Below the pieces are notes generated by a model. That model was not told the origin of the DNA and did no database searches. It saw only the letters and a list, made by a program, of their open reading frames with translations. A stretch of 63,433 nucleotides of DNA, the filler included, from Psammoneis japonica (Eukaryota): the NCBI GenBank assembly GCA_008632985.1. It is 3 parts of 3 records of this genome, joined end to end, with 100 filler letters (N's around TTAATTAATTAA, not from the genome) between each part and the next. Parts side by side here need not be neighbours in the genome. Positions count along the whole stretch, not along the records: positions 25,969 to 51,215 come from QPGO01000429.1; 2 more parts are not named here. One strand, 5' to 3'. The position numbers and the translations under genes are program-made. This document shows positions 20,158 to 45,054 of this stretch, piece by piece. Position 1 is the first letter of the stretch, and each line of letters opens with the position of its first letter.

Positions 20158-21099
20158 TGCAGCAATTTCACAAACTGCCACCACCTTTGGTGTGCCACAC
20201 ACTTCCTGACATCAGCTGCCTGCTCATGGCCCCCATGTGTGTTTCTGGGCATGCTCTTGCACTGATGTTGCCCTTTTCAGATGGCATTTTGTTGGGTCCC
20301 CCAACACCCTTTTGGCCACTTCTGTCATTGGTGTGCCCCCTTGTTTCAGCATCATGTGCAACAATTTTCAGTGGAAAATGCCTGGCATTGACGCCTTGTG
20401 GTTCACATGCTTGTTGTCTCGTTCAGCAATTTTTTTTTCTGATTTGGTGCATTTTGCATTTTCTGCACAGGATCTGGTGCAAATTCTGCACGCTTCAGAA
20501 ATGTCCACCAATGATCATGACATCTTCAATGCAATTGTCCTCCATCCACACCTGTCAGCCCACAACATTTTCTTTTTCTCCTGCCAGCTGCTCAAGTCCT
20601 TCACCTCATGTGGTGAAAGCAGCCTGGTGTGGTGCTTGCGAGTGTTTGTTTGGACAAACCATTGGCGCCACTTGATGGCTGCCCATTTGCTGCCTGGATT
20701 GGCATTTCTGAACAAGATTCAGTGTCAGTTCCACGTGAGAATGACATTTCTTCCAATGTCCTTCTCATCATGTCATCAAGGCTCTCCCTGTTTCATGCCT
20801 GCAAGTCCTGAACACCCCCTCTTTTCCCCACTGACCTGCCAGCCTTGCTGCTCTGAGCAGCAAATGGTTTGATTTTCTTTCGGTGCATGCAAATGTGAAA
20901 CTCAGTTGGTCTTTGTTGACAACAAGACTCATCCTTGGAAGGAAGGTTTTCCTTTCAGAGTTTGCACTGACTTTGTGTCCTGTTTTTGTCATGATTGTTC
21001 TTTGCTCCTGTGGTGGTTTGGGGGCTTTGCATCCTCTAAAAGAAAGTGACAATCTCATTTCTGTGCAGTTTCATCTCACCCAGTTGTCTCTGTTGGGCA

Positions 21100-22610
21100 G
21101 CTCCATCTGGAAGTGCCGCAATCTGCTGATCACACAAACTTCTGCCGCACCCCTTGCAGGGTGCACTGGAAGTGTGTGGGTCAGCTGGCACCGGCATTGC
21201 TGGGCAAAGGTGCAGCAGCACTTTAAGTTGGGTTTGAGTTTTTTTGGTGTGCCACCCAGCATGCACCTTGCATGCAAGACAGGTGGCCATGGTGCCCCTG
21301 TCATGATCAAGACTGCCATGGTCCCTTGCATGCAAAAAGATGCCACCACAGTGCGTGGCTCTCACAAATTGGCTTGGGAGTGCCCAGAGTTCCTGCAAGG
21401 TTAAGATGCCCAACACAGCTCAAAAGCTGCTCTGGATTGCCCCACCTTGTGAAAAGGTCTCAAACCTTTGAGTCAGCTCAACTGGCATCATGCCCCAGCA
21501 TGGTCAACTCCCAAGAGCCACAGTGGGCTGCTCTCATCACAGTCTCAACAAGAGGGCACTCTCTCCCTCTCTGTCTGTGTCTTGCTCCTCTGGAGGCCAC
21601 ACAATTTGGTTGGGCTGAGCACTCTGGCAACTTGTCATTTGTGCTGGCCTGTGTGCTTCAGACCAGTGTGCTTGGTCAAAATTGACATTGCTGATGGCCT
21701 CTGATGTTGCACATGTGGCTCTGCATCCCAAGGTGGCACACCACAAACCCAAGCACACTCAAACCTCAAGGTTTCACAAAACCAACTGCTGCTGGGCTTC
21801 TTTGCCAGCTCAGTCTGATGCCTCCAGCACTTCCGCTGTCACACCAGATGTCCAAAGTGAGTGTGCGCCTGCTGCCCAAACACCATGCAACCCCCCCCCC
21901 CCCCCCAATGCAACCCCCCCCAACCTTGCAACCACCAGGCACAAATGGCAGCAGTGACCACTGTCTGCACTGAAAACTTTGCACAGAAGTGCCGCACCTG
22001 GGACACAGCACCATGAGGGCAGCCCAGTCATGTTTGCTGAGCTCTCCTTCACATGATGCATGGCATCCTCCAATCAGTTGACATTCCTCAGATCTCAGTC
22101 ACCAAACAGATCCAATCTCCCTCAAGATGACATTGAAAAGAGATGTGTGCTCGTCAACGTGCAAGAGTGTCCCAGACTTGACCAAGTCATCATCAACCAT
22201 TGTGCCTTGCCAAACTCCTGCCAACCATGCCACCTGCTCAAAGGAACCCATCTTTTGACAAGCAGCACAGCCCCCTGGGTGAGCGGTGGTCAGCGGCATT
22301 GGGGCCATTCCTGGTGCCCCCCAAGGGCTCCTCAGCCACTTTCAGGGAGCACTGCACTGCCAGAAAAAAGCCACCTTTGACTGTGCACAAAGAACTCTGC
22401 CACACCTTGGCAAACTGACACCCTTGCCACCCACCCTCTCAGGCTTCCATGATGCTGCCAGAAAAGGAGCAGGTGGTGTCTGGCTCCCAGATCCCACCAT
22501 CACTTGCCATGACCTGCCACTCCAAACCCTCCATCACAACAAACCAGCACAAGTGACTCCAGATGAGCCTGTCCCCACCCTGTGGAGGCACAAATTCCCA
22601 CCATCAAATG
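21100..22610 (+). mobile_element. Degenerate DIRS/Ngaro-like RT-RNase H fragment
   Basis: GAPVMIKT..KDATTVRGSHKLAWECPEFL, VKIDIADG (RT), and GFHDAARKGAGGVWLP..PTLWRHKFP (RNase H). Confidence 0.65.
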
Positions 22611-25600
22611 AGTTTGTTGTCAGCCATTGGATGCCCACTTGTGCCACTCTCCTGCTTCTCCACTCCTCAAGCTCAAGCTCCAACCCAACCAAGTGGCACT
22701 TCTTTGTCGCTGCTGCAACAGCAACAACTGGTCAGTGAGAAGAACCCACATGCTTTGGAGCCAGCCTCTTTGCTGTCCAGCTTTTGATTTGTGAGTGGTC
22801 TGAAGCTCAAGCTCCACAAACAGAACTCCAACATCAACTGCCTGTGTGCCAGAGTTGCTTGCACTGTTTGAAGCAGCAGCAGCCACAGATTGTTGCAAAA
22901 AATGCACAGAAACACAATGATGTGTGACAGGAGAGGATGCACAAGTGTGGTCTTGCACATGGCACAGGAAGCCTGGTTGGATGAGTGACACTGGCAGCAT
23001 CAAAAACATTGATTGAGGTGTGGTGCATTTGTCATGTTTGCATGCAACAACTTGGAAATGATGTCCTTTGACAATTGTGGCATCATTGGTTGCAACATGC
23101 ACATTGCTGAAATGTTGTGACAGCACACCATGCACAAAGTTCATCAAAGCAGATTTGTGCCTGCAGTGCAATGCAGGAGACTGCAAGCTGTGCCATTTTG
23201 CCAAAACAGAGTGGCACCCAAGAATTTGCAAATGCCCACTGCCATCTTTGAGATTGCTGCACGCACCATCATCTTCCATTTTGGTGGTCTCATTGTTGGA
23301 AATCTTGTCATCAAAAAGCCACTGAGCCCGTCCACCACCATCATGGCACCTCACTTTCTTCTTGGCAGTCGTGGCATCTGGAGGGGGCTAGCCAAGATTT
23401 TTCAGCTGCTTTGCCCTGCTCAAGAAGTGGCTTCTCTGTTGCCAAAAGCTCTGTTCAGAGGAGCAGGCAGCCTCATGCCTGCTTGGCAGGTTCTTTGTTG
23501 TCATGAACAAATGCTCTGAGCTTCCAACCAGCCTTGTTGCAAGCAAAGGAGCAAAAACCACTTCTCTCACAGGGCAGGGGGGGGGGGGGAGGTGAAGTCT
23601 CCTTGTGTGCCAAGAAGTTGCAAGATGGTTGCTGAGCAGCTACAAAGATTGCTGTTCTTGGCAACTGTGAGAGCTGGTTCTTTGCCAGCACGTGTTGTCT
23701 TGAAATGAAAAATCATGTGAAGTGTGCAATTGCTTTGCACACTCTCATGAATGTCTTCATCCATGAACAAGGAGCCTTTGCTCAGCACCAAGTGCAACCT
23801 TGGGGGGCAGTCAAGTGCACAATCCTCGTGACGTGGGCCACCCACAGTTGACTTGCAGTTGTGTCAACATGCATTTGCACAAGCTTGTGGAGTGTGCACT
23901 TCTGGGTTGTGTGACTCCACAACAAAGATGTTGCTGGCATCTGCCAGCTGTCAACATGGGGCACAGGATCCAACCAGATTTGTGCAAAAGGATGCTGCCA
24001 ATGATGAAAGAAGACAACTTTGCTCTGGCTTTGAACAGCACAAGGTTGATGACTCCAACAATTGCAGCTGCAAACCACAAGCAGCGTGCTGAACCACCAT
24101 GAAGCAGTGGTCTAGTTTGCACAGCACACTGCACTCCTTGGGCACTTTGGAGTGCTTGGAAGTTGTGGCATGATCAAGACATTGCAGGTTTTGGAGGGGA
24201 TGCTCCATTGTGCCTTTTGTGTGGGGGCAGCAGCTGTCATGATGGCCATCTCCTTGCACTGTCACCCCAAACAACAGCCATCATGTTCTTTCTCTCTCTC
24301 TCCCCCCCCCCCCCCCCCCCCGCACACATTGCTGCTTCTTCTGAGTTGCGCCAGCTGTTCTCCATGTGGATGATGGCAATCCAAACATCAGCTGGGACAA
24401 ATTGCCTCTTTTTTTGTCATTCCTCCAAGACTGATGTCAAAACTTCTCAGCAACTTCTTTGCTGCTTCTGACTCCAATGGTCAACTTGACAGTCAACAAC
24501 ACACAGTGGCATTGCCCACACAGCTGAGTTTCTCTGGACATTTGTTGGCCATTTCTTGGGCTTTCATTTTGGACAAGATGCGCCCTTAAAGACAGCTTTC
24601 TGATCCTGAAATGGCTCTGAAGCCCTTGTGCCTTTCAGGTCAAATTTTGTGAAGCTGACATTTGAAGACATGATTTTTCTGTGTCTCCCTCTGGGTCTGG
24701 ACTGGGCTTGTCCACTCTTCAGCCACAGTGGCTGTGATTGGCGCTGCAACAAGCACCCAGTCAATCCTGTCTTGACTCAAATCATTGCTTGCGTTTTGCT
24801 GTTGCAAAAACCACCTCTGGCAAACTGTTGCAAGCTGAGTCAAAAATGGGAGTGCACAACTTGAACAATGCACCGTGCTGGTTGCAGTGCCAGCTTTGTC
24901 AGGCAGTTGCGCCAATGACAGAGAAACCAAACAGCATCGGAGGGGACACTCTGTTGTGTCTACGTTTGGGGGAGCGGTGCCGCCATGGTGTCGCATCTCT
25001 TTGCATTTTCTTTCCCGATGTCAGCATGTTTTCTACGTTAAATTCTACGCGATTCAGCAATTTTCCAAGTCAGTTCTTTCAGCACAAATTCCATGTACAA
25101 TTCTGCGCGTTTGGCCAGAATTTTGAGTCAAGGACCGTGTCAGGTTCATCCTCTTGTTCTTCTCACCAATGTGCTTCCTTTGAGTTTTCTTTCCAACACA
25201 CTGCAATTCATGATGGATGTTCTGCGGCATTCCAAAGTGGGTCGCCACAAGTCTTCCAGCTGGTTGGCATTTCCAAGTCTCGATGTTGCTCCTCTTGCTC
25301 TTCGACATTGCAGCTTCAGCACACAATTTCTGTGCAATTCTACGCATGACGGAAATTTCATCTGACAATTCCGATCATCATTTCCTTTCCTTCGTTGGGG
25401 TCTGTGTTGGACTTTCTTGGGTGTTTTTCATCCCAGGAATTTCTCTCACATTCGCTTCAAGCATGTTGTCTTCGGAGACAGACACGTGTTTAGTTTTCTG
25501 CAGTGTTTGTTTTGGTGTCTCCCAAGTGGTGTGGCTGGGCTTGTCCATTCTTCGAGGCACAGCAACTGTGGTTGCCGTGTGACAAGCATCCGGTCAGTCA

Positions 25601-25868: not shown

Positions 25869-25968
25869 NNNNNNNNNNNNNNNNNNNNNNNNNNNNNNNN
25901 NNNNNNNNNNNNTTAATTAATTAANNNNNNNNNNNNNNNNNNNNNNNNNNNNNNNNNNNNNNNNNNNN
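25869..25968. other. Artificial contig linker (N44-TTAATTAATTAA-N44)
   Basis: A six-frame stop 12-mer embedded in Ns. An identical structure occurs at 51216-51315. Confidence 0.95.
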
Positions 25969-28090: not shown

Positions 28091-28519
28091 AGTTCCAGCG
28101 GGGAAGGGAAAAAATGCAAAATCTACGACGGTGATGGCACCATCTTTACGATTGTCCGTGAAAACGAATTCTTGGTCGTCATCAAAGCAATCAACGGGTG
28201 CATGTTCACCGGAGACTTCCAGCATGCTGGAGTAAGGAATTTTCCCGAGAGCAGCCCTGAGGCAGACCTTCTGGATCGATTAAACTATCAAATAGATGAA
28301 ATCGTTGAGAGGTTTCCTTCTGATGAAGAGAGAGACACAAGAAATGAAGCATTGTTGGACATGATGTGCGAATTCAACGACTTAAACAAAGTGTGTCGGC
28401 TTCATTGCTCCACTGAGATGACTACAGGCAACTTGTGTATTCCGCAGAATATGATTGGCTTTCACGACTGCCTGGCTAACGAACCGGATCCTCGATGCTT
28501 TCAAGAAGACGAACTTTGA
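25969..28519 (+). CDS. Multi-exon host gene (5' end uncertain, apparent frameshifts) with a C-terminal 2OG-Fe(II) dioxygenase-like domain
   Basis: GGTEDQSLHHD (HxD), FTGDFQHAG (distal His) and CRLH. GT-AG introns at about 27206-27285 and 27971-28092. Normal TA content. Confidence 0.5.
28045..28090 (+). repeat. (CT)n microsatellite in an intron polypyrimidine tract
   Basis: Directly visible. Confidence 0.95.
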
Positions 28520-29597
28520 GTTGCTCGATATAGTCGTATGACACACGGAAAACGTGTAGCTGGATCCGGAAGTGGCACGAACAATCCACATACAAACGAT
28601 TGACAGTTAAGCGAACCGACGTACGCAGTATTCGCAAAATGGGAAATAATCAAATTACTCTTAGCAGAACTGTCATCAGCGCTTTGGGCATTCCCAGATC
28701 CGTCGTCTTTGACGGAAGAAATCGTCAATTCTCCGAATACGATTTTGGAGTCGGACGACAAAGCACCGTTCTGCCAAGTAAACCCACTTTGTCCGTTTTT
28801 GGAACAAAGCTGGTGGCGAAGAACGAACCGTTTGCTCCCTGCTCGACTTTGGCGTCCTCGATTCCATCTCTTCCCTTTCTACACGTAAAGCAACGCGTTT
28901 TGTTTTCCTTCTATTTTTCTTAGCATGAGTCACACGCCAATAGCTCTTTCCGCCAGCAAGAATAATGTTATTCCATGTCTTCGCGCTGTCCGCTGTCTCG
29001 TGCTCTGGCTTACTAAGTGCGGCATTCGGGCTCCAGGGCTGTCCTTACGCGGGTCGTTTAAGAACTTGAGGTGTCAGCGACTTGCAAAACACACGATTCG
29101 TCCTTGCTATGGGAGGAGGAATCGTCGCTTTGCGGTAAATCCTCCTTCGGTTCTTCTTGGTCCATGGATCGTTTTGGAGAATGCAAGAGGCGGTTTATGT
29201 GACTCTACGACGTCATTGTCACTGGCGGCGGCATCATGTGTATCCGATGACTTCTGGGGACGGGATGAGCTTCACTTCAGGCAGATGTGTTTCCCTGGTT
29301 AAAATTTCGGACGACATTGAAAGGAAGCTTCCACTCGATTCTACACTGCCGACGCTCTGTCGACTTTTCCAAGTGGCCGACTGGGTGCACTCGATTTCTC
29401 CTTTCTCGTCTTTGTCCATGTCGTCGAAGCCCGTGCGAGCAAACGAGTTCGAAGGCGACACGGGACCACCTCTTATTGTCTTGGCATCAACATGAATGTC
29501 GACACCTAGGCGCTCGATTGCCTTTTCGTTGTTTCTTTCCTGTTTGCTTATCTGCGAAATGTAAGTAACTGGCTTTGTTGCTGTTGATTCTGCCGCT

Positions 29598-29779
29598 CGA
29601 GTAAATCTGGGTGGAGCGGTCAGTCCCTGGTCCGGGGCTGACGCGCACGATCTGGTGGTTTGTTCTTTCCCACAATCTTATACGATCTAATCGACACAGG
29701 GTTCTCTTTGGTTTGTCACTACTACTCTTAGGCTTAAGGTACTGTCATTACCCCACGCGGCTACATCGGTATTTATTCG
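29598..29779 (+). repeat. 5' LTR
   Basis: Matches 36231-36412 at 178/182. Followed by CTTTATCAGAGCC, which resembles the tRNA-iMet PBS TGGTATCAGAGCC. Confidence 0.95.
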
Positions 29780-30227
29780 CTTTATCAGAGCCATTGATGA
29801 AAAGCTGAACGAAACGGACAAGGAAACAACTCGTTGCAAACGGTTGATTGTTGTGATTGTGTGCATGGAACGAGCAGCTGTAGAAAATGTACTGATTCGT
29901 ACGCGTAGCGTCGAAAGGGGGTTGTCGCGTGCAGCGTGTGCTCTGTATCGCGTATGACGACCAAAGGAAACAGCTTGCAACGGAAAACACTCGCAAAATG
30001 GTCACCATCTCCACATTGTCAACGGGTGTGGAACGACTGCGGCATTGGGCAGCATGCCCGAGCGTGTGCTCACGATGGAAACGACACGGGATTGATCACC
30101 CCGAAGTCGGTTGGCTACGTGAACCCGTTGTCACGGCACCGGTCGGTGTTGCCTCCTGTGCCATGCGCACTCACACCAAATTGCGACCCATTGCATGGGT
30201 CATTGCCTCCATTTCTCTTGTCGTGGG

Positions 30228-31751
30228 ATGGCAGCGGCACCAGCAGTGGCACTTGCGGCTTTGGCCGTGGCGGCTGACGTAGACGCGGCATTGCAAGTTT
30301 GTGGTGTTGTTGACCAACACGCTGGGGCGAGGCTTGTTTTCCATGAAGGGCCCACCACTCTTGAAAATGTTGCTGTTGTGGAAACGGACCATGATGTTGA
30401 GGATCTAGCCCAAAGGGCGGCTCGTCGCACAGCAGCCGATGGACGCGTGACGCCAGGGACGACACAGATTAAGAACTTGCAGGCATTGGTTTGGTGGTTG
30501 AGAGATTTAACGAAACGGAGCCAGCCACTGGTCGCGGCAAATTTTAACATTGCAGCCATGGCGGCGGCTGGGGACGGCAGGCGCATTGAAAAGGTGTTTG
30601 CGGAATCCACTGCGATGGTTGACAGCCTCACCAAATTCAAAGTGGAAGATTTTGACGTGTGTGAAGACGCTTTCTTGAACTTGTTGGCGCAGAAGCTTGG
30701 TGCACTTAAGGAGCCGTTGAAATGTGTCGCGAGGAGGATGCCTGCACCGGCGGAGTTCGCGGACAATCAGGAGGAGCGCATGTGTCAGTTGCCGCTCGCC
30801 GGAGACACGTTTGATGTGGACAATCGTCACGTGTGTCGCATGTTAAAAGAGTGTTTGATTGATGCGGCTGGTTGGGCTTGGATTGAACCACACGACGCAA
30901 CAGAGAATGGACGCGAAGCATTCTGGGCCTGGGTTGACCATTGCAATGGCGAAGGCGAATTGAGCAAGCGAGTTCATTTGGCCAAGGCCAACATCGAAAC
31001 GTCATTCTACAAAAAGGAAGGTGCACTTACGTTTGAGAAATTCACGGAGAAACTCACCAGTGCCTTTGCTGCTTTGGACAAGGTTCCGGATGAAAGCATG
31101 TCTGCTCAGCAGAAGGTTGAAATGTTGCAGAAGGGCATCAAATCCGAGGATGCCCGTCTTGTGGCGGCTACGGCCGTTGTTGGCAACCAGTGCCCTCGTG
31201 ACTTCGCGGGGGCGTGTGCTTGTTTCTCATCCGAAGTCTCTCGTTTGCATGCAGGTGCTCAGTTGGAAGCCCGGCATCACACGAAGCGCAAGATTTCTCA
31301 GATCAGCCGAGGTGGCAGTGGTGGCCGAGGTTTCCATCGCGGCGGTCGTGGGCGTGGCGGTAGATTTGGCCGCGGTGGAGGACGCGGAGGACATCAAGGA
31401 AGGGGCGGTGATCGCACAACTGTGATTGACGGAGTCGATGTGTCGGATCCTACGAGGACATTTGCCGTCCAGGAATGGGACAGATTGCGCTTTAACGGAG
31501 GTCTCAATTGTGTTTTTCAAGCTCGTGAAAGGATGCACGGATGCGGTGGTCGAGGAAACCCTGCAGGAAGAGGCGGACGCGACGGAGGCAACAGGCAAGC
31601 AGCCGAAGCTCAGGTTCAAGACCGTCAAGGTCAAGGGCAGCAAGGTGAAGCGCAAGGTGAAAACGGTGGCCGCGGTTGCGGAGCTGACCGTGATCGTGGT
31701 GGCAGGAATGGGCGCGCTTTCGGTCGAGGGGCCTGTCAAGGTCATGTTTGA
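30228..31751 (+). pseudogene. Copia gag-like ORF with an RGG-rich C-terminus
   Basis: AGWAWIEPHDATENGREAFWAWVDHCNGEGE, the RGG tract, and its position after the LTR. Only one Tyr. Confidence 0.85.
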
Positions 31752-31879
31752 CTGATCGGGGTGGTTTCAACTGCGGGAGCGTTGGCGCATTTGGTGCACA
31801 CATCATTTGCATTCATGTTGCTCATCATGTTGTTAAACAAACCCCACCCAACATTTCATTTGCAAGAGAAGGTAACGAA

Positions 31880-34800
31880 AAGGCGCGTTGCTGTGACTTC
31901 GAAACGTGTGATGAGGTCAACGACTGCCACCGCGATGACGAACTTAACGACACCCGGCTTCATGGCGAGGAACGAATGTGACACTCATGCGGACACTTGT
32001 TGTGCTGGCGCTAACTGGAAACTTGTGGAATTGACGAACGAAGTCTGTGAAGTGCACCCGTTTCTAGATTCAGATTCCTGTGGCGCGTTGTTGCACAGCA
32101 TGGACGGATCCGGAAACAACTCGCGAGCACTTGCTGGTTGGAGACCAAATGCTGTGGTTTGGAACTGACATGCAGCATTCATTGTTGAACCCCAATCAGT
32201 TGCGAGCACACCATGTACCCGCACACGACAACCCTTGCGACACTCGAAATGGGTTTGGAGTCGAAGCTGATGAAGCTTTCACACCTTTCAATTCCACGGG
32301 GACAATTGTGTCTTTCAAGTCTCGTGTTCCGACGGATTGGGAGGAGAAGAACTTGCCAGTGATGCTGCTGACAGGAGACGCATGGAGTCCAACGGAAGTC
32401 GACATGGGTTTACCACAGCGCACAAGGGAGCAATCTGAGATGCGCACTGTCCGTTCGATGACATCTGGCATGAGACAGGAACAGATTTCAGAAATGAAGA
32501 GCGACAGGGCCAAGTCTCAAGCAGTCCAATGGGGCGAGGTTGAAGCTGAACTCACTCGATTGTCTCCAGTCTGTCATCTTCAATCCTTTTGTGACAGGCT
32601 CATCAGTTCAGTCAACGCAGCTTGCGCGNNNNNNNNNNNNNNNNNNNNNNNNNNNNNNNNNNNNNNNNNNNNNNNNNNNNNNNNNNNNNNNNNNNNNNNN
32701 NNNNNNNNNNNNNNNNNNNNNNNNNNNNNNNNNNNNNNNNNNNNNNNNNNNNNNNNNNNNNNNNNNNNNNNNNNNNNNNNNNNNNNGACGGCGACCCAAC
32801 CAATGTCAAGGAGAGTTAGGGTGGATCACTTGGACCTGCATCGGAAAAGATTAAAAGGGACATGGTTTGTGGACACGTTAACATCCAAGGTGAAGTCTTT
32901 GCTCGGTGACACTTGTGCCAATGTTTGTGCTCAGGGCAAGTTCGTAAAGGTTGTGCCAATGACCGCAAGGTCGGAGGCAGGTTTGTCTCTCGTTGACTTT
33001 ACAGACGATGTGGGAGTGCCGGAGTGTCTCATGTCGGATGGTGCTGGAGAGTTCACAGGACGAAGTGCCGAGTTTGTGAAACACGCACGTCGAATGAGGA
33101 TCCAACTCAGGACAACGGAACAAGGTCGTAAGAATCAGAATCACGCAGCAGAAAGAGAGATCGGGTTCTTGGCTAAGCGCTGGCGCCTGCGGATGACGAG
33201 GAAGAAGGCACCGAAATGATTGTGGGATTTTGGTCTAGTTTGTGAATCGGAACTTGCATCTCGCATGGCAAGAGGCCGCGACAAATGGACTGGGTGTGAA
33301 GAGGTAACTGGTCAGACACCCGAAATGGGCGAGTGTTTGGACTTCGGTTTCCATGATCTGGTCTGGTGGTGGGATGGACACGACAAGCCGAATGTAACAG
33401 ATGACCCGAGGAGGCTTGGACGATGGCTTGGCATGTCTCACAAGGTCGGATCAGACATGTGTTGTTGGATCATCACGGAATCCGGGAAGACAGTTTCGAA
33501 GACTTCGGTCGAGCATGCAACGCAGGCCGACATGGTGCAGCCGGACATTCGTGTGAAAGTCGACAAGTTTAACGAACAACTGGAGGCACGGTTAGATGAC
33601 ACCAATTTCGTTTTACAAGGCGACGAAGCGGTGCCAGCATTTGCATTGGATGATTTGGCGATCGACGGCAACCCCGGCGTGGAATGTGAAGGCGGTGTGA
33701 CACCAACCGATGAGGAGTGCAGGGACATGTTGTTGCCAGGAGAACGACCCGAGGACGACGACGAACAGGCAATTGATCAACATCTCGGAATGGAACTTAT
33801 GTTTGATGTTGGGACTAAAGCTGAACGGCGAGGAGTCGCAGTCAAGCGGGCACGAGGTCAGGATGGGCGACCGATTGGAACCCGGCATCAGAATCCATTG
33901 TTTGACACCCGCGAACATGAGATTGAATGCACAGACGGTGCCAGAGATGAGCATGCTGCCAATGTGATCGCGGAGAACATGTTTGCTCAAGTTGACAGCG
34001 AAGGCAACCAGCACTCTATTTTGCAGGAGATGCAGGATCACGAAAAGACCGGCGAAGCTGTGCCGATCCAGGAAGGAACAGTTCAGACAGCTGACGGGAA
34101 CGAACATAAGAAGACAACTACGAAAGGATGGAACCCATTGGTCGCATGGAAGGACGACAGCTCGTCGTGGGTGAAACTCAAGGATCTGAAGGAGTCCAAC
34201 CCGATTGAACTTGCTGAGCATGCTGCAGCGAACAGGTCAACCGAAGAACCGGCGTTTGCTTGGTGGGTCACGCATGTTTTACGCAAGCGGAGTCGCATCA
34301 TCTCAAAGGTTAAGAAAAAATGTTGGTGCACTGCCCACAAGTTCGGCGTGCGTTTGCCCAAGTCTACGGAAGATGCTTTGAAGATTGACCAGGAAACGGG
34401 GACAGACCATTGGGCTCGCGCAATTGACAAGGAGATGAACAAGGTCAAGATAGCGTGGCGCGAACATGAAGCTGAAACCCCTCAAGTCGTCCGGGAAGGC
34501 AAGAGTGCAACTTTGCGTGGTTGTCAGGAGATCAGGTGCCATTTGGCATTCGACGTAAAGATGGATTTCACTGGGAAGGCCAGATTTGTTGCAGGAGGTC
34601 ATGCTGCGGAAACACCATCATCGATCACATGCTCAAGTGTTGTTTCGAGGGACAGCGCACGGTTGGGATTCCTGCTGGCAGCATTGAATGGAGTGGACAT
34701 TGCGGCTGTCGACCTGGAGAACGCGCACTTGAATGCCCCGTGTGCGGAGAAGATCTGGTTCGAAGGTGGCAGGGAATGTGGAGAGCACCAAGGCAAGGTT

Positions 34801-36066
34801 CTAGTTGTGACTCGAGCGCTGTGCGGTTTGAAGAGCTCTGGATGCTCTTGGAGGTCCGCATTGGCATCGGTTTTGCGGAACATGGGTTTTGAATCAACGA
34901 AGGCGGATCCCGACGTTTGTGTTCATGCGGCAACTCGCGACGATGGGCACGAGCATCATGAAATGCTTTTGGTTTGTGTTGACGACATTCCAATCATTTC
35001 TCATCAAGGAAAATCTGTTGTCGAGAGCATGGGTGAATCATTTGCTGTCAAACCTGGGAGTGAAGGAGAGCCATCGTTGTGCCTTGGAGCTGACGTCGAG
35101 AAGGTTCAGACCGAAGATGGGCGCACCATTTGGGCAAGCTCACCGAAGTCGCATGTCAAGTCGGCAATCAAGACGGTGGAAGGGCCGTTGGAAGAGGACG
35201 GTGATGGAGCAGTCTTGAAGAACAATGTGAGGGACCCACTGCCTTCTAAGTGCAAGCCGGAATTAGACATGGCGGACGAGTTGGGACCCGATTTGGCAGA
35301 CAGGCATTTGCAGTTGATTGGCATTTGTCGTTGGGCGATCGAGTTGGGCCGTGTCGACATCTTGCATGAAGTTTCCATTCTCTCTCAGTGTCAAGCCAAC
35401 CCAAGGAAAGGGCACCTTGAAGCGTTGCACCACGTGTTCGCGCATGTGAAGAAGCACTTGAATGTCGGTCGCATTGGTTTTGACCCGAAGATGCCTGTGA
35501 TTGACGAATCTGTTTTCAATTCTGCTGCGGGCTGGACGGAGTTTTGCGGGGACGTTGAGGAGGAGTTGCCGCCACAGATGCCCAAGCCCCGTGGCAACCC
35601 AGCAAATGTGTTTGCATTTGTTGACGCTAACCATGCAGGAAACGTTGTCACTCGCAGATCGCATGGCGGGATTTTGACACTCGTGAACAATGCTCCGATC
35701 ATTTGGTTTGGCAAGCGGCAGAACACAGCGGAGTCGGCGACGTTTGGTGGCGAACTGGTTGCGATGCACGCTTGCAAGGAGTTGATTGTTGCTTTGCGTT
35801 ACAAACTTCGTGTGTTTGGAGCACCGATTGAAGGCCCTGCCAATGCATTTTGCGACAACCGCGGCGTGGTGAAGAACGTCAGTGTTCCGGAATCTGTGTT
35901 GCACAAGAAGCACAATGCCATCAACTGTCATTTGGTTCGTGAAGCGGTTGCGGCTGGCATTGTTCGCGTCGGGAAGGAGGACACGGACACGAATTTGGCG
36001 GATTTGTTTACGAAGGTGACGACGGGAGAGCGGCGTTGGAAACTTTGCTCTTGCATCTTTTGGCAG
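31880..36066 (+). pseudogene. Copia pol (protease, integrase, RT, RNase H) with a frameshift near 32070 and a TGA at 33217
   Basis: ECDTHADTCCAG (PR), SDGAGEF..NHAAEREIG (IN), KARFVAGGH, ALCGLKSSG, LVCVDDI (YVDD), VDANHAG..RRSH, FCDN and NLADLFTK (RH). The probable original stop TAG now reads CAG at 36064. Confidence 0.93.
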
Positions 36067-36230
36067 AGCCCCGACACCAAGGCCAGACACCTGCGGCTCG
36101 CGCCCACGTGTTTTCGGCCTCCCAAGCCAGCATTGCTGGTGGTCTGAATTTGGGTTTTGTGTTTACCTCTCTATGAGAGGATGTTCTAGGTTTAGACGAA
36201 TCGGCGTTGTCACTGCCGTTTCGCGGGGAC

Positions 36231-36412
36231 CGAGTAAATCTGGGTGGAGCGGTCAGTCCCTGGTCCGGGGCTGACGCGCACGAGCTGGTGGTTTGTTCTT
36301 TCCCACAATCTTATACGATCTAATCGATATAGGGTTCTCTTTGGTTTGTCACTACTACTCTTAGGCTTAAGGTACTATCATTACCCCACGCGGCTACATC
36401 GGTATTTATTCG
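36231..36412 (+). repeat. 3' LTR, preceded by the PPT-like GCGGGGAC
   Basis: Direct repeat of 29598-29779. Confidence 0.95.
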
Positions 36413-36765
36413 CAGTACGCTTCGACACATAGATAGAGCAGCAGACAGCAGCCTCGTTTTTTTGTGACAGCTGACAGCCTAAAATCCTGGGAATACCTTG
36501 GTTTGCAATCATCACAACGTTGTGAGAGGTTCGTTGTTTCAGCACACAACAGCCCACCAGTTTTTTTTTCTTCGACAAATCGCTTGTGCATATAATATGA
36601 AGAGCCTACACGGTACCGGATAGGAGTTTTCTGAAGCTGGATGATACAACCGACTGCCCTGTTGTCGCCGTTGATAAGATACCAGCTTCACGGTCGTCGA
36701 CGACTGAGTCTCACTTGGGAGCTTGTATTTCAAGTTTGTAGAAAGTCTAGAGTACCATAGCAACA

Positions 36766-37864
36766 ATGGAGGGGCGTACGTATCCTCGATTGTGGCACGA
36801 ACCGGAGGATGAGCGGGTGTCCGAGCAAACAACTACAAAACGAATCATCCTAGACGAATGCCTTTCCGACATGACGAACCGATTTACGTTGAATCAACCT
36901 CGACCTAAATCTTTGTTCTTCATCTTGAGAAATTCACTGGTTGTTGGGCAAGAGTTTATCTTAGCGTGTCTCTTATTAGAATGGCATCGGATTGAACTCA
37001 AGCTCGAAGACGAAACTCACATGTCAAAGACGGACATTTCAAAGGAAGAACGGAAACAGATGGTGTCACTGGTAATGGTATTGCTTGCATTACTGACTAC
37101 CATATGTTTTGGCAATCTCGGACGCGGTTCCAAAAGGATTCAGAAGCAACGAAAAAGAGACAAACTGAGGATCCGAATGACGGATGCACTCTTACTAGCA
37201 GGTATCTTGAGGCTTCTATCGGCCGTTCTTCGCACGTTGACAGCATCTTATTCCTCAGATACAGTCCACCCTTGCTGTTGGTGGGATGGGTGTTCACTTG
37301 TTCACGTGTGATTACTCATACGCTAATGGTCGAGTCAGCTATCCAGCGAAAAGGCCGTCGAGTCGCAGACCCGTCTTTCAGGGTGGAACTCTCTCGCTGA
37401 ACGCAGCGCTGTTTTCCACCATATTACTTGCATCACGACTGTCTTCCAACTCAATGGTCTATATTTTTATTTCCTCTTCAATCACATTGTTGCTTTCTAC
37501 CCAGAAACACGGCATACAATTGCTGCCCAGCCGCATTCGTTCCTTGGTAAGTAGCTACTAATCCCGCAATGCGTGGGTGTGTATAACGGTGCATCTCACA
37601 GGTTGATGCCAATTCTCTCCAGCAGCCTCCTTTCTCATCACGGCATTTCTCTCACTTGCATCACTAGCGCTGCTTGCTAGTGTCGCAGAACAGGTGGCAT
37701 TCGTTGCAACAATCGTTTTCATCTGCATTGTTGCTCCAGTTTGGAAGTATTGGTTGCAGTCATCCAAAAGGATTATCGCAGGGCCTTGGGACATTGCCCA
37801 CGTGTCAATCCAGAACCAAGAGTTGCAGGCCGAGATGCATGACTCTGACAAAAAGAAGCAATAG
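36766..37864 (+). CDS. PIGC: Phosphatidylinositol N-acetylglucosaminyltransferase subunit C (GPI2/PIG-C), with apparent frameshifts
   Basis: LSAVLRTLTASYSSDTV, HLFTCDYSY, LSLNAALFSTILLASRL and C-terminal KRIIAGPWD, spread over different frames. Confidence 0.85.
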
Positions 37865-37912
37865 CAAAAATTCCTCCGATTGTAATTCCTATCGTGTAGC
37901 AAAATCGAATCT

Positions 37913-38512
37913 TCAGCACAGATCAAATCTAGCCAGTTCTTTCCACGATGGAACTCCTTCCAAAGAAGCGGGGTAAGTTGACCAGAGAGCAACTTGTGCC
38001 GCTTCAAAATCGGGGGGTGCGGCTACCTGTTCCAAAGGTGGTGCGTTTGCCTTTCCATGGAAAAATGAATAGTGCGGTTCGTATAACGGTGGCCTGAAAC
38101 TGAATTCCTCTTTCAATTCAAGAGTTTCTCGTACTTTCTGTATCAATCGCATGAACGCATCGGATTTCTCCATGACGCAAATGCATGCTTGATTCCATAC
38201 GAGAGAGTCGTCGTCCTCGTACAAACTTAATACCTCCTTTCGAAAGCGACATGGTACAGGTCCAGTATCAGAGAGTGCTGACTTTAATTTACAGCGCCAT
38301 TCATCGAGTTGTTCGGGAGATTCACAGGGAACACCTCCAACCACAGTGACGTGCGGCTCAAACGGATGACTTTTTTCGTTGGACTTTGCGTACTTGACAA
38401 TCTGCTGAGACAACGAGTGGCGGAGATGAGGTGGAGGTAACAGCCAGAGTGAAACCTTCATGTAGAGTTCAGTTTCTTCGTTAGAATCTGTAGCCGCCTT
38501 TGGGATCGTCAT
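37913..38512 (-). CDS. 2H-family cyclic phosphodiesterase (CPDase-like)
   Basis: Intact 199-aa ORF with SLWLLPP, FEPHVTV and EPHYSF (two HxT/S motifs). Confidence 0.85.
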   Translation of the reverse strand: MTIPKAATDSNEETELYMKVSLWLLPPPHLRHSLSQQIVKYAKSNEKSHPFEPHVTVVGGVPCESPEQLDEWRCKLKSALSDTGPVPCRFRKEVLSLYEDDDSLVWNQACICVMEKSDAFMRLIQKVRETLELKEEFSFRPPLYEPHYSFFHGKANAPPLEQVAAPPDFEAAQVALWSTYPASLEGVPSWKELARFDLC

Positions 38513-38901
38513 GGAGGATTGTTTCGATTGTTTACAATGTGCGGCTTTGTTTCATGGTCTCTTGCTCGTCGCACTGATTCGTGGCTCGTGTTGGTGGTCG
38601 TGCCTGCCGCGTGGGTCGTGGTTCGCGCGATATTGCGCGAAACTCGAGGGCAAATTTTACTTCATATCTCTTTGTATGATGCATAAATTTTAAAATATAT
38701 ATATGTTTTTGATGAAACTGAATGTGATAGACTATCGAAAACTTAATAGTGATATAAAACAACGTACTGATGATTTGCGTAGTTTTCTACATCCGAATCT
38801 GTCAGTACGCACATCGGATGTTGGTATTGTGCCAGCAGGATTCGAGTTTAGCGGAAAAGTAGTGAGGCAACACACGCACATGAACATCACAAGCAACGCA
38901 A

Positions 38902-41538
38902 ATGGCGCTCCGAGCTTTTCGTTCCAACCCGTCCCTCGGCGGCTTTGGTGGGGAGAGTCAACATCACATCTCTATTGACAATCCTGATAATAATGACGCA
39001 TCGGTGATTGAGAAAGACTGCGACGCCTTTGCGCAGATTGTGAAAGAGCTCGTCGACAATGCTGTTGACGCCACCGCCGCCGCTTGTCAAGACAATGGCG
39101 AACCCAAAAGAGTACGCGTCGTTATTCGAGAGCTTCAAGATGACATTCGAGAAGATTCACACTCTGGATCCACCGAGCAAGTTCTGCGGGTTACCCGTGA
39201 TCGATAATGGGTGCGGAATCAAAAACATCGAGGAGTGTGTCGATGCGTTTCACTCGAGCAAAGTACAACACCCACCCGACGACTCTCATCCTGCGAAGAA
39301 TGACAGCCAAAGACAGACTGCTGGTCGATATGGTATCGGTCTCACTCTATGCCTTCTCCATGCGCAGCGGCTTGTTCCGAACTCGTATTCTTCAATCACC
39401 TCAGCGACATCTACCGCGTCCCAGTACACGAGAGCAAGCTATGTTGTCGACGTAGAAAAAGACACCATTCAGTGCGACAAGATAGAACTCATACCAAAAA
39501 AGTCTCCGGAGGAGAGCGGTACTGCTGTCAGTGTCCTCGTGCCGGTAGGTCGAGCAAGCAACAAAAAATACAGTTTCTCCATGAAAATGATATCTTACAA
39601 TCGCTTCTTTTTTCTTTCGTGAAACAATACACTACCAGGGAGGAAAGACGGCTCTGCACGCTTGGCCGCGACTGGCGGAATATTTTGCTCGGTTTCAACT
39701 CAGTCTGGGTCTCAATTGCAGCTTGGAAGTGCTCGCACCTTCTTTGTCGGCTGTCCCTCTCTACATTCGCCCATCGACGGAGAGGACCGAGGATACGGTG
39801 CTACATGAACGACTCAGCGATGCTGACAAATCAGTCGATGAAACCCGTGATTGCTCTTCTCACAAGAGTCAAGAAGAACATGATTTCTGGACAGACCTTA
39901 CAACATTGCACGAAGACGAAGGAACTAGCCAGAAGTATCGTCACGAATCATCCGCCAAGCAAGGCGGTGACAAAGATGACGGCGGTATGGCATCGACACT
40001 GGAGGATTCGGAAGAAAGCAATCATCGTAGCAAGTCAGCTAAAAGTAAGGATGACGCCATTCTCGCACGTCGTCGAGAGCTTCGTTCAGCGGCCTCATCA
40101 TACCTGTCGTCGGAGGTTTTGCTCAAAAATGTTGCCCATGCGATGCAACCTATTCGATCGAGCAGCGGATGCAAAGATACAACTGAAAGACCAATGCTTG
40201 AGATAGACATGATTGTCTTTCAGTCTGATGACAGGGGAGACATTGATTCTGTAAATGACGAAGATTCGGTGGCTTTGGATCCCGACAAGAACTCAGACAT
40301 TGCGACTAGAAGCGCTAATCTCATGCTTGTTCGGATGGTGAATCGAGTGCCACTACTTGATGGCGCCGAAGCTTCGGCTTGCGGGCTTGTCCGAGGTTTG
40401 TGCTGGAAACAATCCATTTGGAATTCGTTTGGCTTGCATATTGCTCCTACGGATGAGAATAACGAGACCAGCAGACAAAGCGCTCCGACATCAAGGATGT
40501 CAGAGAACAACAAAGTGCCTTCGGCACCTCCTTTGTTGAAGCAACTATTCGTACCAACGTACGCTGTGAGAGATAGCGATCAGGTAGCTCCATTCTTTGA
40601 ACGAAGTACGCATGCGCAACTTGAAGAAAGTGATATCGACGATGCCTGTAGTCTAGATGACGACGAGCAAAACACCGACGTGGAGGACGAAGGCCCTGGC
40701 CAGAAACGAAAACGAGGCAGAGCTCAAGTGCTACTACCCGTGAATGTACGCATAGGGAACATTCTGGTGATTGCGCAGATACATGCAAAACCCTCGTCAC
40801 TGCCACTGCCAACACTTTCAAAGGTAAGGAAAAAAGGGAGTCTTGGTCGTGTTTTGCAACGTCGTCACCATACAATGTCGCCTCAACAATTTTGATTGCG
40901 ATTTGACTTGCGCCACCAAGGGGCGACTTCCAATGAATGACAAATCCATTAGCGACGCCCTTGAACTCGGACTTCTTTCCTGCCTGAGAAGCCTGCAGAC
41001 GACGAACCCGACATTACTCCTTACGACACTGCAGCTAAAGGAGACGGAACGCGACGCCCGATACATACCAGCGGTCGCAGTAGCAATCGCATCGATCGCA
41101 AGCAAATCGAAAAACGACTCTCTTCGGAGCTCAATAGCGGAATCAGTTCAAAACTGGGGAAATCTCGACGCAAGGGAGGAAGACAACGAAACGACTTCCA
41201 TCTCAGAGTATGAATCATCCCGTGCACCAGCGATGCCAATTTCCAAGCTATTCCGCGTAGCCACGATGGGGCGGATTGTCGAAGAACAGCTTCGTCACAT
41301 ATGCCGAGTCGGCAAACGTAAGAAGAAGCAAGGTGGTGAAAACAAGAGGAAGAGTAGCGAGACTGAAGGAAATAGCAACAGCAAAGAGTATGCTGAACTC
41401 GATGACTTTATTGGTGCTGATGGGTCTTCTATCAGCGATTCGATCAGTGAAAGTAGCTGTGATGAGAGTAACTCGCAACCCCGTGGGAGAGTCTTGGAAG
41501 AGTGGGAAGACCCGTTTGACGACAACGACTCGTGGTAG
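38902..41538 (+). CDS. TOP6B: DNA topoisomerase VI subunit B-like GHKL ATPase, multi-exon with an apparent frameshift
   Basis: QIVKELVDNAVDA, DNGCGI, TAGRYGIGL, SGTAVSV and VRMVNRVPLL..ACGL. Introns near 39545-39638 and 40824-40920. Confidence 0.8.
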
Positions 41539-41693
41539 TCACAAGAGAAGCCTAAATCACGGCAGAGTAGCTTCGGTATCTTCGCAGTAGGGAAAGGACG
41601 CCAATCGTAGTTTACAGACGTAAACAAGAGTCGGAAGAATGGCAGGGCATAACTTGAGAAGTAAATGCTAGTAGAACTGAGTCAACGAGTCAT

Positions 41694-41860
41694 TCATGAC
41701 AAAATACCGCGCTCAATGCCCCAAGCGTTGCCCTTGGGGCACTTTTGCTTCACAACAGCCGCATCAATGGCCTCACGTTCCGCTGCTGTGAGTTCGATGG
41801 AGTGTGTCTGACATTTCTCAACGATATGGTCCTTGTTGCGAACACCAATAGTGATGGAGG
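41694..41860 (-). pseudogene. Possible C-terminal fragment of an aldo/keto reductase
   Basis: IGVRNKDHIVE..IELTAAEREAIDA..PKGNAWGIERG. No upstream domain is seen. Confidence 0.35.
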
Positions 41861-42335
41861 AACACATTTTTGGCCAGTCACAAGATGTCATTGCACAAGA
41901 CGATACTCGAGCACACATTAGAAACAAGTGATGATAACAAGCGCTGCTTGCTTGTTATGTAGTGAGATGAAGACTCTGATTGTGGCAACTCAGGGCCCTA
42001 ACTTCTTTTATAGTAACTACGTCAACGCACAAGTATGTATTCGCAAACATTGTCGCGGCACACCAAGTTGACACCACATTCATTGTCGCTGCAGCAACAT
42101 GCAATCTTCTAATTTTAATCACTATCGTTCTAAACTTCAAGCTTCGATCTAGTTTCCCCCGTTTCGTTGGTCGTTTTGTAGGGAATTCAGGAGGAGTTGG
42201 CGAAGCAAAGTATCAATGTATTATATGTAGATGCGCAAGAGCGAATAACTTACGCAGCCGATGCAGTTACACTGGAGGCTGTTTCCGAAGCCATCGCCCG
42301 CTTGATCTCACTCTCAAGAGCTTTAAAGTCCTTGT

Positions 42336-45054
42336 TTAGATGTAGCTTCTTCTCAGCCTCTGCAACAATATGAATCGCGGTGAAACTGAATCCGGCGTAA
42401 GCGAGATGGAGTCGATTCCTTGTTCCACAAGAAACGCGGCAAACTCAGGCTTGTCACTAGGAGCTTGTCCGCAAAGACCAACAGGTATGCCATTACGGTG
42501 CGAACCAGCAATCGCTTCTTGAATGGCTGACTTTACCGCCGGGTTTTCCTCATCAAAGAGGCTCGCTAGTTCACCACTGTCGCGGTCTACGCCGAGAACG
42601 AGCTGGGTCAAGTCGTTGGATCCAATGGAAAAGCCATCAAAGAGAGCAGCAAAGTCATCAATGGCTAGGACGTTGGCAGGAATCTCACACATGCACCAAA
42701 CTTTAAGACCGTTTTGTCCTTGTTTCAATCCCTTCTTGGCGAGAATGTCAATCACGTTCTTCGCTTCTGCCGTTGTACGACAAAAGGGAACCATAAGTTC
42801 CACATTATCAGGCCCATTTCATTGCGAACATAAGATAGAGCCTCGCATTCAAGCTCAAAGGCATCTTTAAACTTGGGGTGGAGATATCGCGCAGCTCCAC
42901 GAAGTCCCAGCATTGGATTTTCCTCATCCGGTTCAAAGTATTCACCACCCACGAGACGACAGTACTCGTTTGATTTGAAGTCGCCGAGACGGACAATGAC
43001 CGGGCGAGGATAAAAGGCGGCAGCAATGCTTCCAATACCTTCAGAAAGCTTTCGAACGAAGAAGTGCCTGGGCTGGGGTCGTTCTTGGCTTTTTCCTGAA
43101 TTACCACAAGAGCCTCCTCGTTCACTCGATCGGGAAAGAGTACCGCATTCGGATGAATGCCAATGTGGTTCGCAACCACAAATTCTTGGCGCACTAGTCC
43201 AACTCCAGCGACCGGTAGATGAGCATGTGCAAGAGCGGAATCGGGGTCTCCCAGGATGAGCTTTACCTTGGTCTTGGGCTTTGGAAGATCCTCAATGCTA
43301 AACTCGTGTGCTGAATATCAGCAACTCCTTGATGGATGCGTCCCTTGCTGCCGTTGGAACAGTCTACCGTGTATAATTTGCCAGTTTCGAGTTTCTCTGT
43401 GGCATCTTTTGTGCCAACAATGCACGGCACGCCCAATTCTCGACTTACAATTGCAGCATGACAAGTGCGGCCGCCGCGATTTGTAACGACGGCTGATGCC
43501 ATGCGAATGGCAGGTACCCAGTCTGGGTCGGTAATGTCAGCCACGAGTATTTCTCCCTTTCTCATTTGAGAAATATCGGCAAGATCATGAATCACTCGTA
43601 CTTTTCCGCTGGCTGCACTAGAACCAATGGCTGTGCCATCGAGAACTGCTTGGCCTTGATGTCGAACCACTGTCTGGGTGAGCGCTTCCTGATGCTGACG
43701 AGACTTTACAGTTTCTGGTCTGGCTTGCACAATATAAAGCTTCCCCGTGATTCCATCCTTTGCCCACTCAATGTCCATTGTGTGGGGTGTCCATGAAGCT
43801 TACTGTAGTGATTTTCAATGTCCACGCACCACTTTGCAAGGGTCTTGGCATCTTCATCGGTAAAACAGGCTTTACCTTGGTCGGCTAGAGAGGTCTCTAT
43901 GGTTTTCGTCCGTTCATGAGGAGAGTCGTAGGAATAAATAATGGACGTCTGCTTACGTCCAATACGGCGATTGATAATGGGGTCCTTTGCTTTTCCAATC
44001 ATTGGCTTGAACAATTGGATTTCATCGGGATCCACCTTTCCGCCAACGACGGACTCTCCTAGGCCATACGAGCCGGTAATGACAACAACGTTGCGAAATC
44101 CCGTATCAGGATCGAGTGTAAAGGCAACACCCGAACTTGCGACATCACTCCGCACCATTAACTGAACGGCTACCGCACCCTTGATCTTCATGTGGTCAAA
44201 TTGGTTGTGTACACGGTAGGTAATGGCGCGATCGGTGAATACCGAGGCCAGGCACTCCAGGACGGCATCCGCCACGGCTTTTCCTCCAACCACGTTCAAA
44301 AACGAGGCTTGCTGCCCAGCAAAGGATGCTGTCGGCAAGTCTTCGGCGGTTGCCGAGCTTCTTACGGCAACGGAAACTTCCGTGTCGTCGGAGCACATGC
44401 TTTTGTATGCCGCTTCAATGTCTTGGATAATGTCTTTCTGCATGGGTGCCACAATTGCATCATACTGTCAGTGTAAGCTAAAAAGAGTCATGCAGTTGCA
44501 AGAAGAGTAGGATTTTGTTTTCTTACCGGTAGACCTTCCTCCATAATCATGCGACGCGCTTTGCTGCCACGAGCAGCAAGGTCGTCAATGTCAGAGACTA
44601 ATGCAAATAGGAATAAAAAGACTGAGTGAGGCCACTCTAATTTCTCTCGATAGAACATTCAAAAAGCACCAGAGAGCCCACATGTTCATCACATACCATC
44701 AAGATCATTCAAGAGAAGATTTAGTCGTTCTCGCAGTTTGTTTTGATCGAGAACCGCATCGTAAGCGCTGGATGTCACGGCAAATCCCCCAGGAACTTGC
44801 ACCCCAAGTGGCATCAATTCTTGAAGGAGCTCACCAAGAGAAGACGTCTTTCCACCGACCCTCGGCAAATCACAGAGACGGAGTTGATCAAGTGGAATAC
44901 AAAACTCGTCGTTTAAGGCATTCTCGTTTTTATTGTTCACGAGAAAAGCGCTTGTCCGCGCGAGTGTCGACATGGTCCGTGTGCGTCTCACGGCAATGGG
45001 ACTAAAGGCGGACGCACAAGAGGCAAGAGTTACGAGTAGAATTGCAGTCTTCAT
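42336..45054 (-). CDS. ppsA: Plastid-targeted phosphoenolpyruvate synthase (pyruvate,water dikinase), with introns and at least 4 apparent frameshifts
   Basis: Presequence [19 protein letters not shown], then [84 protein letters not shown] and LCGQAPSD. Confidence 0.92.

Follow-up and report, generated by a model that had tools for sequence, protein, structure and literature searches.

Two described systems resemble the process considered here. In the chlorarachniophyte Bigelowiella natans, integrated DNA of nucleocytoplasmic large DNA viruses (NCLDVs) and of virophages undergoes TpA hypermutation (Mettrop et al., bioRxiv 10.64898/2026.01.13.699255); the preprint gives deamination as its authors' hypothesis, proposes ADAT2 as the enzyme, and reports that TpA-poor coding sequences are enriched in transposase and reverse transcriptase (RT) domains. 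The other system is the repeat-induced point mutation (RIP) of ascomycetes, a transition-only dinucleotide hypermutation that kills repeats and leaks over their edges. Here we analyse a 63,433-nucleotide stretch of the Psammoneis japonica assembly (GCA_008632985.1; 91.4 Mb, 597 contigs), hereafter the window, and a Ty1/copia retrotransposon within it, at 29598-36412, whose interior has lost most of its TA dinucleotides. We compare it with its own Copia family (family 1), with a second Copia family (the young family, copies L086-L113) and with a Helitron-like family.

Family 1 has the RVT_2 reverse transcriptase (Pfam scan, E=4.8e-11 in the window element), the long terminal repeats (LTRs) and the target duplication of Ty1/copia, but not canonical Copia ends, its termini being CG...CG with a 4-bp duplication instead of TG...CA with 5 bp. 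The RT has 2011 homologues at E<=1e-50, the named ones coming from Fragilaria crotonensis (57-59% identity). We take the CoDi-type Ty1/copia elements of diatoms to be the nearest named relatives; RVT_2 and the Fragilaria crotonensis homologues are shared with them, whereas the CG...CG ends and the 4-bp duplication are not.

The observed/expected ratio (o/e) of TA is 0.17-0.18 in the interior of the window element, 1.2-1.4 in its LTRs and 0.52-0.57 in its flanks; CG o/e is 1.0. The earlier note on this DNA had described an interior almost without tyrosine codons, and this holds: three coding stretches contain 2 Tyr in 1,815 codons, a share of 0.1% in the window frame against a median of 3.5% in homologues. 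At the 26 conserved Tyr columns, defined by a Tyr share of 70% or more among 40 homologues, the window has His 12 times, Cys 12 times and Phe and Tyr once each, so that 24 of 26 have become His or Cys. Conserved His was kept at 15 of 15 positions and conserved Cys at 6 of 7, and Trp was mostly kept.

Nine family-1 copies were aligned; C199, which is without a duplication, and C73, whose 3' LTR is deleted, were left out of this alignment and of the pair sum given below. In the nine copies, codons at conserved Tyr columns start with TG 113 times, with CA 90 times and with TA 20 times, and the 279 interior TA-class sites hold TA 545, TG 982, CA 904 and CG 19 times. Both strands are therefore hit equally, and a converted site is seldom hit again, as also in the young family, where TA slots hold TG 576, CA 436, CG 4 and other bases 28 times. 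Any two family-1 copies agree in their TG or CA product at 52-65% of sites, and runs tests on 19 copies found no strand-coordinated runs (z -1.8 to 1.5 in 18 copies, 2.5 in one). Given this level of agreement and the absence of runs, conversion proceeded in place, copy by copy and on both strands. On the evidence of these alignments, we are close to certain that each copy was mutated after its insertion, site by site, by A:T to G:C changes almost confined to TpA.

In the core interior of the nine copies, TA was kept at 467 of 2232 positions (79% converted), which corresponds to a per-base hazard of 0.78 (bootstrap 0.73-0.83). CpG was lost at 284 of 6881 (4.1%), and other A>G changes affected 116 of 20357 (0.57%), other G>A changes 31 of 17871 (0.17%) and transversions 31 of 45109 (0.069%). 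TA conversion exceeds CpG decay 19-fold (bootstrap 16-23), other A>G 137-fold, non-CpG other G>A 451-fold (246-989) and transversions 1138-fold (bootstrap over copies about 760-2120), ratios which are cumulative and in which 18 of 315 sites could be gains. They probably underestimate the true values, as saturated sites escape the count and the background is inflated by RT or sequencing errors. In the Helitron-like family, 30 copies kept TA in 645 of 2155 cells and held TG in 815 and CA in 677, with CpG loss of 6.2% and transversions at 0.17%. TA is hit about 90 times more often than AA, and transversions remain at 0.07-0.2%. The 3' base also matters: A>G in the young family falls from 0.36 before C and 0.35 before T to 0.19 before G and 0.16 before A, and family 1 has the same order by class, giving the motif TAY (Y, pyrimidine). 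The earlier note was correct both in the direction, TA to TG or CA, and in a rate far above background, but it is these other copies, and not the window's LTR pair, that show them.

This spectrum is that of Bigelowiella as the preprint presents it: A>G and T>C at TpA only, on both strands, regional, about 1000-fold over background and in foreign or silent DNA. Here too A:T>G:C transitions are confined to TpA on both strands, and the cumulative ratios to transversions and to non-CpG G>A are of that size. At the Phaeodactylum mutation rate of 4.77e-10 per site per generation (PMC6604790), a background of ~0.24% would correspond, as a rough estimate, to ~5 million divisions and so to at least 1.6e-7 per TA base per division, of the same order as the ~6e-7 given for Bigelowiella. 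The settings differ, with mutation-accumulation lines in that study and copy comparison in a diatom-like genome in this one, where the targets are Copia and Helitron-like families at 70-95% conversion. The main text of the preprint describes no TAY preference, no co-decay of CpG, and neither spared edges nor gradients within copies; its supplementary tables may hold wider context. The coexistence of unconverted and partly converted young copies is compatible with activity of the Bigelowiella type, in clonal mitotic lines and in only some of them.

The earlier note had proposed repeating its LTR comparison on other full-length elements, and this brought out a large TA excess: across 23 valid LTR pairs from the two Copia families, 185 of 258 differing columns were TA/TG/CA. 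The eight true pairs of family 1 gave 106 columns (TA/CA 18, TA/TG 16, TG/CA 50, CG-type 16, other transitions 3, transversions 3), with 25 TG-versus-CA sites within pairs. Fifteen true pairs of the young family, whose 347-bp LTRs have the canonical TG...CA ends and 5-bp duplication, gave 152 (TA/TG 39, TA/CA 46, TG/CA 16, CpG 24, other transitions 26, transversion 1). L088, L089, L093 and L096, which are without a duplication, and the incomplete L108-L113 were left out of the young sum; the former four stay in the pooled young-family tallies, and 20 of 60 young-LTR candidates were unscored. The young family also includes one solo LTR (C1:62476).

The two LTRs of one insertion do not mutate at a uniform rate. 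In the true pairs of C154 and C9, 14 versus 1 and 13 versus 3 TA were kept, one LTR was likewise spared in L087, L091, L098 and L104, and the young family shows 67 conversions in 5' LTRs versus 18 in 3' LTRs. Speed cannot be read even from valid pairs, as 13-15 of 15 TA survive in ends beside gene-like DNA and 1-3 in ends within eroded DNA. In family 1, ends of the former kind retain 85-100% of TA across the LTR and 60-100% out to 300 bp (400 bp at 5' ends), beyond which retention drops to the interior level, whereas LTRs adjoining eroded DNA keep 2-24%; LTR retention correlates with the flank (Spearman 0.69, n=18, one duplicate LTR included). Young copies range from ~0 conversion (L086, L094, L095) to ~95% (L107). 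In seven partly converted copies whose duplication is valid, conversion is highest at 0.5-2.5 kb and declines in the 3' direction; the reverse is seen in none, and three copies are converted throughout. Gradients occur in L087, L090, L091, L098, L099, L103 and L105. In 500-bp bins of this family, CpG loss rises from 0.5 to 3.1% and other A>G from 0.33 to 1.16% as TA conversion rises, while other G>A stays flat at 0.40-0.53%.

RIP has the reverse chemistry: it makes TA from CA and TG, whereas the process here destroys TA; the dominant change is the reverse of C:G>T:A, and C>T is confined to CpG at ~4%. RIP is triggered by homology and hits both repeat copies, whereas the two LTRs had opposite fates in the six insertions named above; moreover, strand runs are absent here and unconverted multi-copy elements exist. 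RIP depends on RID and takes place before meiosis. The DNMT4 of diatoms is described as related to RID (PMC9998398).

The His/Cys signature also occurs beyond this genome. Six of 119 homologous proteins have at least three His or Cys at conserved Tyr columns, among them the database Copia proteins P0044 (13 of 16), P0086 (9 of 23), P0119 (6 of 23) and P0031 (6 of 23). P0044, the one of the six that was compared with this genome, has a best match there of just 61% identity, which places the signature in at least one other organism.

On the boldest reading, a natural, host-encoded DNA adenine editor would serve as a genome defence in SAR (Stramenopiles, Alveolates and Rhizaria) algae and be recruited to newly silenced mobile DNA. 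It would start just behind the retroelement promoter, spread along the copy and a few hundred bases of flank, and erase TpA until the element is dead, as a mirror image of RIP common to the diatom, the chlorarachniophyte and at least one further organism (that of P0044). We hold this whole reading tentatively, at a probability of about 0.4. The narrower explanation that we favour has parts of differing strength. Mutation of each copy in place almost certainly runs over many cell divisions. Its target is probably a chromosomal domain and not a sequence, to judge from correlation: the domain would usually start behind the 5' LTR, spread along the copy, coincide with CpG decay and often spare the last 300-400 bp beside gene-like DNA, and may correspond to silent chromatin marked by 5-methylcytosine (5mC). 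For the lesion, the spectrum suggests, at about even odds, deamination of adenine to hypoxanthine by an enzyme of the TadA/ADAT fold; such an enzyme would need a 5' T and prefer a 3' pyrimidine, and replication would then fix G, destroying Tyr codons and killing the element. The 5'-T and 3'-pyrimidine context and the restriction to transitions are those expected of such a deaminase. Engineered TadA adenine base editors likewise make A>G changes in DNA, and are reported to favour YA or YAY (10.1101/2025.05.14.653640), but these are laboratory enzymes acting on guide-made single-stranded DNA, with a far weaker dependence on 5' T.

Several observations weigh against the favoured explanation. Deaminases of single-stranded DNA usually leave strand-coordinated runs, and the absence of such clusters in the 19 copies makes processive action on single-stranded DNA less likely. 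From sequence, a lesion on A looks the same as one on T. The genome has a deaminase-like gene on C26, with HAE, PCIMC-type and N motifs, and a second with a hydrophobic leader, which from their motifs we take to be ADAT2-like and TadA-like, respectively; two family searches, whose gene counts are lower bounds, found no extra TadA-like gene beyond these ordinary-looking ones. Given that ADAT2 is a universal tRNA enzyme (10.64898/2026.01.13.699255), the presence of an ADAT2-like gene shows nothing. The 5'-3' gradient is partly a product of selection, as RT score, a criterion biased towards intact 3' halves, was the basis on which 14 of the 19 full-length young copies were chosen, although a 3'-ward slope is also seen in two of five young copies picked by LTR. 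Nor does conversion always follow the flank: the true 3' LTR of the insertion at the C1 site (described below) is converted though the flank in the empty allele has a TA o/e of 0.52, and L091, L097 and L098 have converted 5' LTRs although the adjoining flanks have values of 0.42-0.61.

If instead the lesion lies on thymine, a TET/JBP-type dioxygenase could oxidise T at RTA (R, purine) in silenced DNA to 5-hydroxymethyluracil (5hmU) or 5-formyluracil (5fU), which would mispair with G and give T>C. We consider this unlikely. The window itself carries a TET/JBP-like open reading frame (ORF; 14291-15826, + strand; Atlas score 0.96, with Tet_JBP on 16% of cluster members), all ten of whose best family matches lie in a common family or clan; the genome contains 31 or more near-full-length copies of it, and an HxD-type motif, NAHRDQDF, is present in 23 of 30. 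In a dinoflagellate, 5hmU made by a TET/JBP homologue is reported to mark transposons (PMC11572971). Against this, TA erosion has affected every one of the 30 copies examined (o/e 0.15-0.31). A Pfam Tet_JBP search of the genome was blank, as were its controls, so that it is uninformative. Moreover, 5hmU opposite A is only weakly mutagenic.

The co-variation of TA conversion with CpG decay would also be expected if repair of deaminated 5mC in methylated domains set off error-prone synthesis by a polymerase of the Pol eta/iota type, placing G opposite T. Off-target A>G by 5' base (A 0.86%, C 0.45%, G 0.26%) falls in an order that resembles the WA motif. However, Pol eta gives a much flatter TA:AA ratio than the ~90-fold found here, and many transversions, which here are rare, and TA conversion is ~19 times commoner than the CpG events that are its supposed trigger. 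On balance this explanation is improbable. Still less probable, in our view, is that N6-methyladenine (6mA) at TpA in repeats decays to hypoxanthine as 5mC does to T: this would give the symmetric, run-free and slowly accumulating transitions that are observed, but most reports of eukaryotic 6mA place it at ApT in genes.

The window element was first read from its own LTR pair, and this requires its layout. The window consists of three contigs joined by spacers (25869-25968 and 51216-51315; N44-TTAATTAATTAA-N44), across which the DNA is not physically adjacent; the element lies on contig C428 (window 25969-51215), whose slice is identical to the window. Its features are as follows.

28300-29597, + strand: left flank, ~100% identical to C1:1150294-1151591(-), where the assembly has an empty site
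29594-29597, + strand: left target bases CGCT of the insertion at the C1 site, not repeated to the right of the window 3' LTR; the CGCT-LTR junction is found in an X1 contig
29598-29779, + strand: 5' LTR of the C1-site insertion, 182 bp, with CG...CG termini and TA still present at 13 of 15 slots
29780-29792, + strand: primer-binding-site-like motif, predicted from sequence
30123-31751, + strand: gag-like frame, open from stop to stop, with 1 Tyr in 509 codons and without a Pfam match
31752-32628, + strand: 5' part of pol, frame-shifted; the window 5' half is 17 bp shorter than C57, in one gap
32629-32786, no strand: run of 158 N, as long as the corresponding colinear part of C57; in three other copies the N run stops at the same point of the element
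32788-36147, + strand: 3' part of pol, probably in the order integrase-RT-RNase H, one in-frame stop at 33217; carries the RVT_2 match and the 24 converted Tyr columns
36102-36283, + strand: candidate switch point between two insertions, identical to C57, from the last interior difference to the first C57-private LTR base
36231-36412, + strand: 3' LTR, identical to the C57 3' LTR, 15 of 15 TA slots kept, with a gained TA (36328) and a private G (36284)
36413-36416, + strand: right target bases CAGT, as duplicated at the C57 insertion
36413-51215, + strand: right flank, a second haplotype of the C57 locus; the two haplotypes differ by 70 substitutions over 14.8 kb, of which 22 are transversions

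The CG...CG termini (29598-29601 and 36409-36412), the 4-bp duplication and the primer-binding-site-like motif, which we liken to that for tRNA-iMet minus TGG, are all unusual for Copia.

The earlier note had assumed LTRs identical at insertion and inferred a young element. The two 182-bp LTRs do differ at four sites only (29651 T/36284 G, 29695 C/36328 T, 29697 C/36330 T and 29744 G/36377 A), but they do not belong together. An LTR search gave 24 matches, making 11 paired elements and two single LTRs; a perfect 4-bp target duplication flanks nine of these, the exceptions being C199 and the window element, with CGCT on the left and CAGT on the right. The flanks come from two loci: on the left the C1 site, and on the right C57, whose element has CAGT on both sides and to which window 36020-51215 is 99.2% identical. 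A read contig from X1 at the C1 site runs from flank through a CGCT copy into 29 letters equal to LTR positions 154-182, in which all three TA slots are converted (TG, CA, CA), and one X2 contig spans the empty allele. X1 and X2 are runs of a single sample, probably that of the assembly, and a single contig supports the CGCT-LTR junction. Together these contigs make the C1 site heterozygous and the true partner of the window 5' LTR a different, eroded LTR. The two ends of the window element almost certainly stem from two insertions. Mis-assembly and true recombination both fit, and short-read contigs cannot separate the two. That both LTRs come from one young insertion, their four differences giving a rate, is very improbable: despite 97.8% identity between the two LTRs and colinearity of the element with C57, the missing duplication, the separate loci of the flanks and the true 3' junction in the read contig all contradict it. 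For the same reasons the pair was rejected as a clock.

Next to the C1 junction, the alternative allele (L040:1191-1357) has nine differences in 170 bp, of which four are TA conversions and two CpG decays, and 4 of 8 TA are converted within 340 bp; this may hint at outward spreading into unique DNA.

The earlier note had allowed that two halves from different insertions might be joined at the N gap; the two origins stand, but the join need not be there. The N run matches the colinear C57 stretch to the base (158/158), as do those of 214, 367 and 214 in three other copies, and a scaffold mis-join at this run is thus not supported. The N runs of all four copies (window, C7, C392, C39) end at the same element position within 1 bp. 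In its 3' interior, the window agrees with C57 at 52 of 87 converted sites, which is paralogue-like (0.48-0.64), and has no private allele in common with it, whereas the truly allelic C306 and C39a agree at 30 of 34 (11/11 LTR and 19/23 interior sites). From these patterns a switch at 36102-36283 may fit better than one at the N gap. Use of the window 3' half and C57 as alleles for timing (152 differences in 3444 bp versus 70 in 14.8 kb of flank) was dropped for the same lack of common private alleles and paralogue-level agreement. Chimeras are common in this assembly: 4 of 19 full-length young-family copies are without a duplication, and L089 combines the 5' junction of L106 with the 3' junction of L087.

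Three of the four differences had been read as TA sites and one as an ordinary substitution. Two are indeed TA losses (29697 and 29744), but the T at 36328 is a TA gain by C>T, so that the pair holds two losses and two ordinary changes. Across 19 family LTRs, position 36328 is T in two (the window and its C57 twin), C in 15 and A in two; the TG product, expected about half the time at a TA slot, occurs in none, which is why we read a gain. The G at 36284 is private to the C57 3' LTR and its window twin. Slot 29697 holds TA, CA and TG among copies, a real loss, and slot 29744/36377 holds TA in four and TG in 15 LTRs, with TA plus TG in the true pair of C154; there a TA loss is likely, with inheritance as the alternative. 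Two of four differences in TA slots would arise by chance with P=0.13, so the window pair by itself shows little, and its LTRs look young because both lie in spared edges. The original finding was therefore half right: a real process and the correct direction, with an invalid clock.

That the changes arose in an RNA or cDNA phase (RT error or RNA editing) or were inherited from an eroded master copy is scarcely credible, and the true LTR pairs largely refute it. In its favour are the retrotransposon nature of the element and a few LTR sites with a single product (29744/36377, 15/15 TG), but strands are hit equally, LTRs of one insertion differ, product choice is independent per copy, a 23-bp satellite shows the same loss, and so does the Helitron-like family, which excludes an RT or RNA origin.

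The window also contains a member of that family, at 4200-17500 on C427, with Helitron_like_N, DUF6570 and PIF1 on the minus strand. Its cargo is of chromatin type: beside the TET/JBP-like ORF lie a SET-like ORF (16028-16672, - strand; Pfam E=0.006, below the cut-off), the sole match of a Pfam scan of the cargo, and an ORF at 13055-14074 (- strand), without a Pfam match, which to us recalls a DOT1-type methyltransferase. The element is flanked, in TA- and CG-poor DNA, by a 2.4-kb direct repeat (815-3258 and 17713-20157, 99.3% identical; also 263-817), which was either duplicated after erosion or is an assembly duplicate. At 18001-24000, TA o/e is 0.01-0.03 and CG o/e ~0.1, a later end state than that of the Copia element. 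Arrays of the 23-bp satellite, in both orientations, occupy 51316-63433 (TA o/e 0.01-0.03). A small TA-poor island (45000-47000, o/e 0.11-0.14) interrupts the gene-rich right flank of the Copia element, and haplotypes differ there at TA-class sites. Other Copia elements have near-normal TA (o/e 0.81-0.84 at the RT in L100, L056 and L058); L056 is 89.7% identical to L082, with o/e of 0.84 versus 0.10.

The same spectrum is thus known from Bigelowiella; what is added here is the refutation of the window pair, family-wide rates, the TAY motif and the series of young copies. In the literature searched, whose coverage was mostly without subscription papers, there was no diatom report of TpA-erasing mutation. 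In genomes of this kind, insertion ages from LTRs, RIP indices and annotation that relies on Tyr all fail, and LTR pairs need a target-duplication check: in this assembly the duplication is missing from 2 of 11 paired elements of one family and from 4 of 19 of another. If the proposed reading is true, this would be a second SAR lineage with a targeted mutator of the A:T>G:C type, here directed at entire families of transposons. The partly converted copies are mapped places in which to look for deoxyinosine, 5hmU and 6mA, so that the existence of a natural DNA adenine deaminase can be tested directly.

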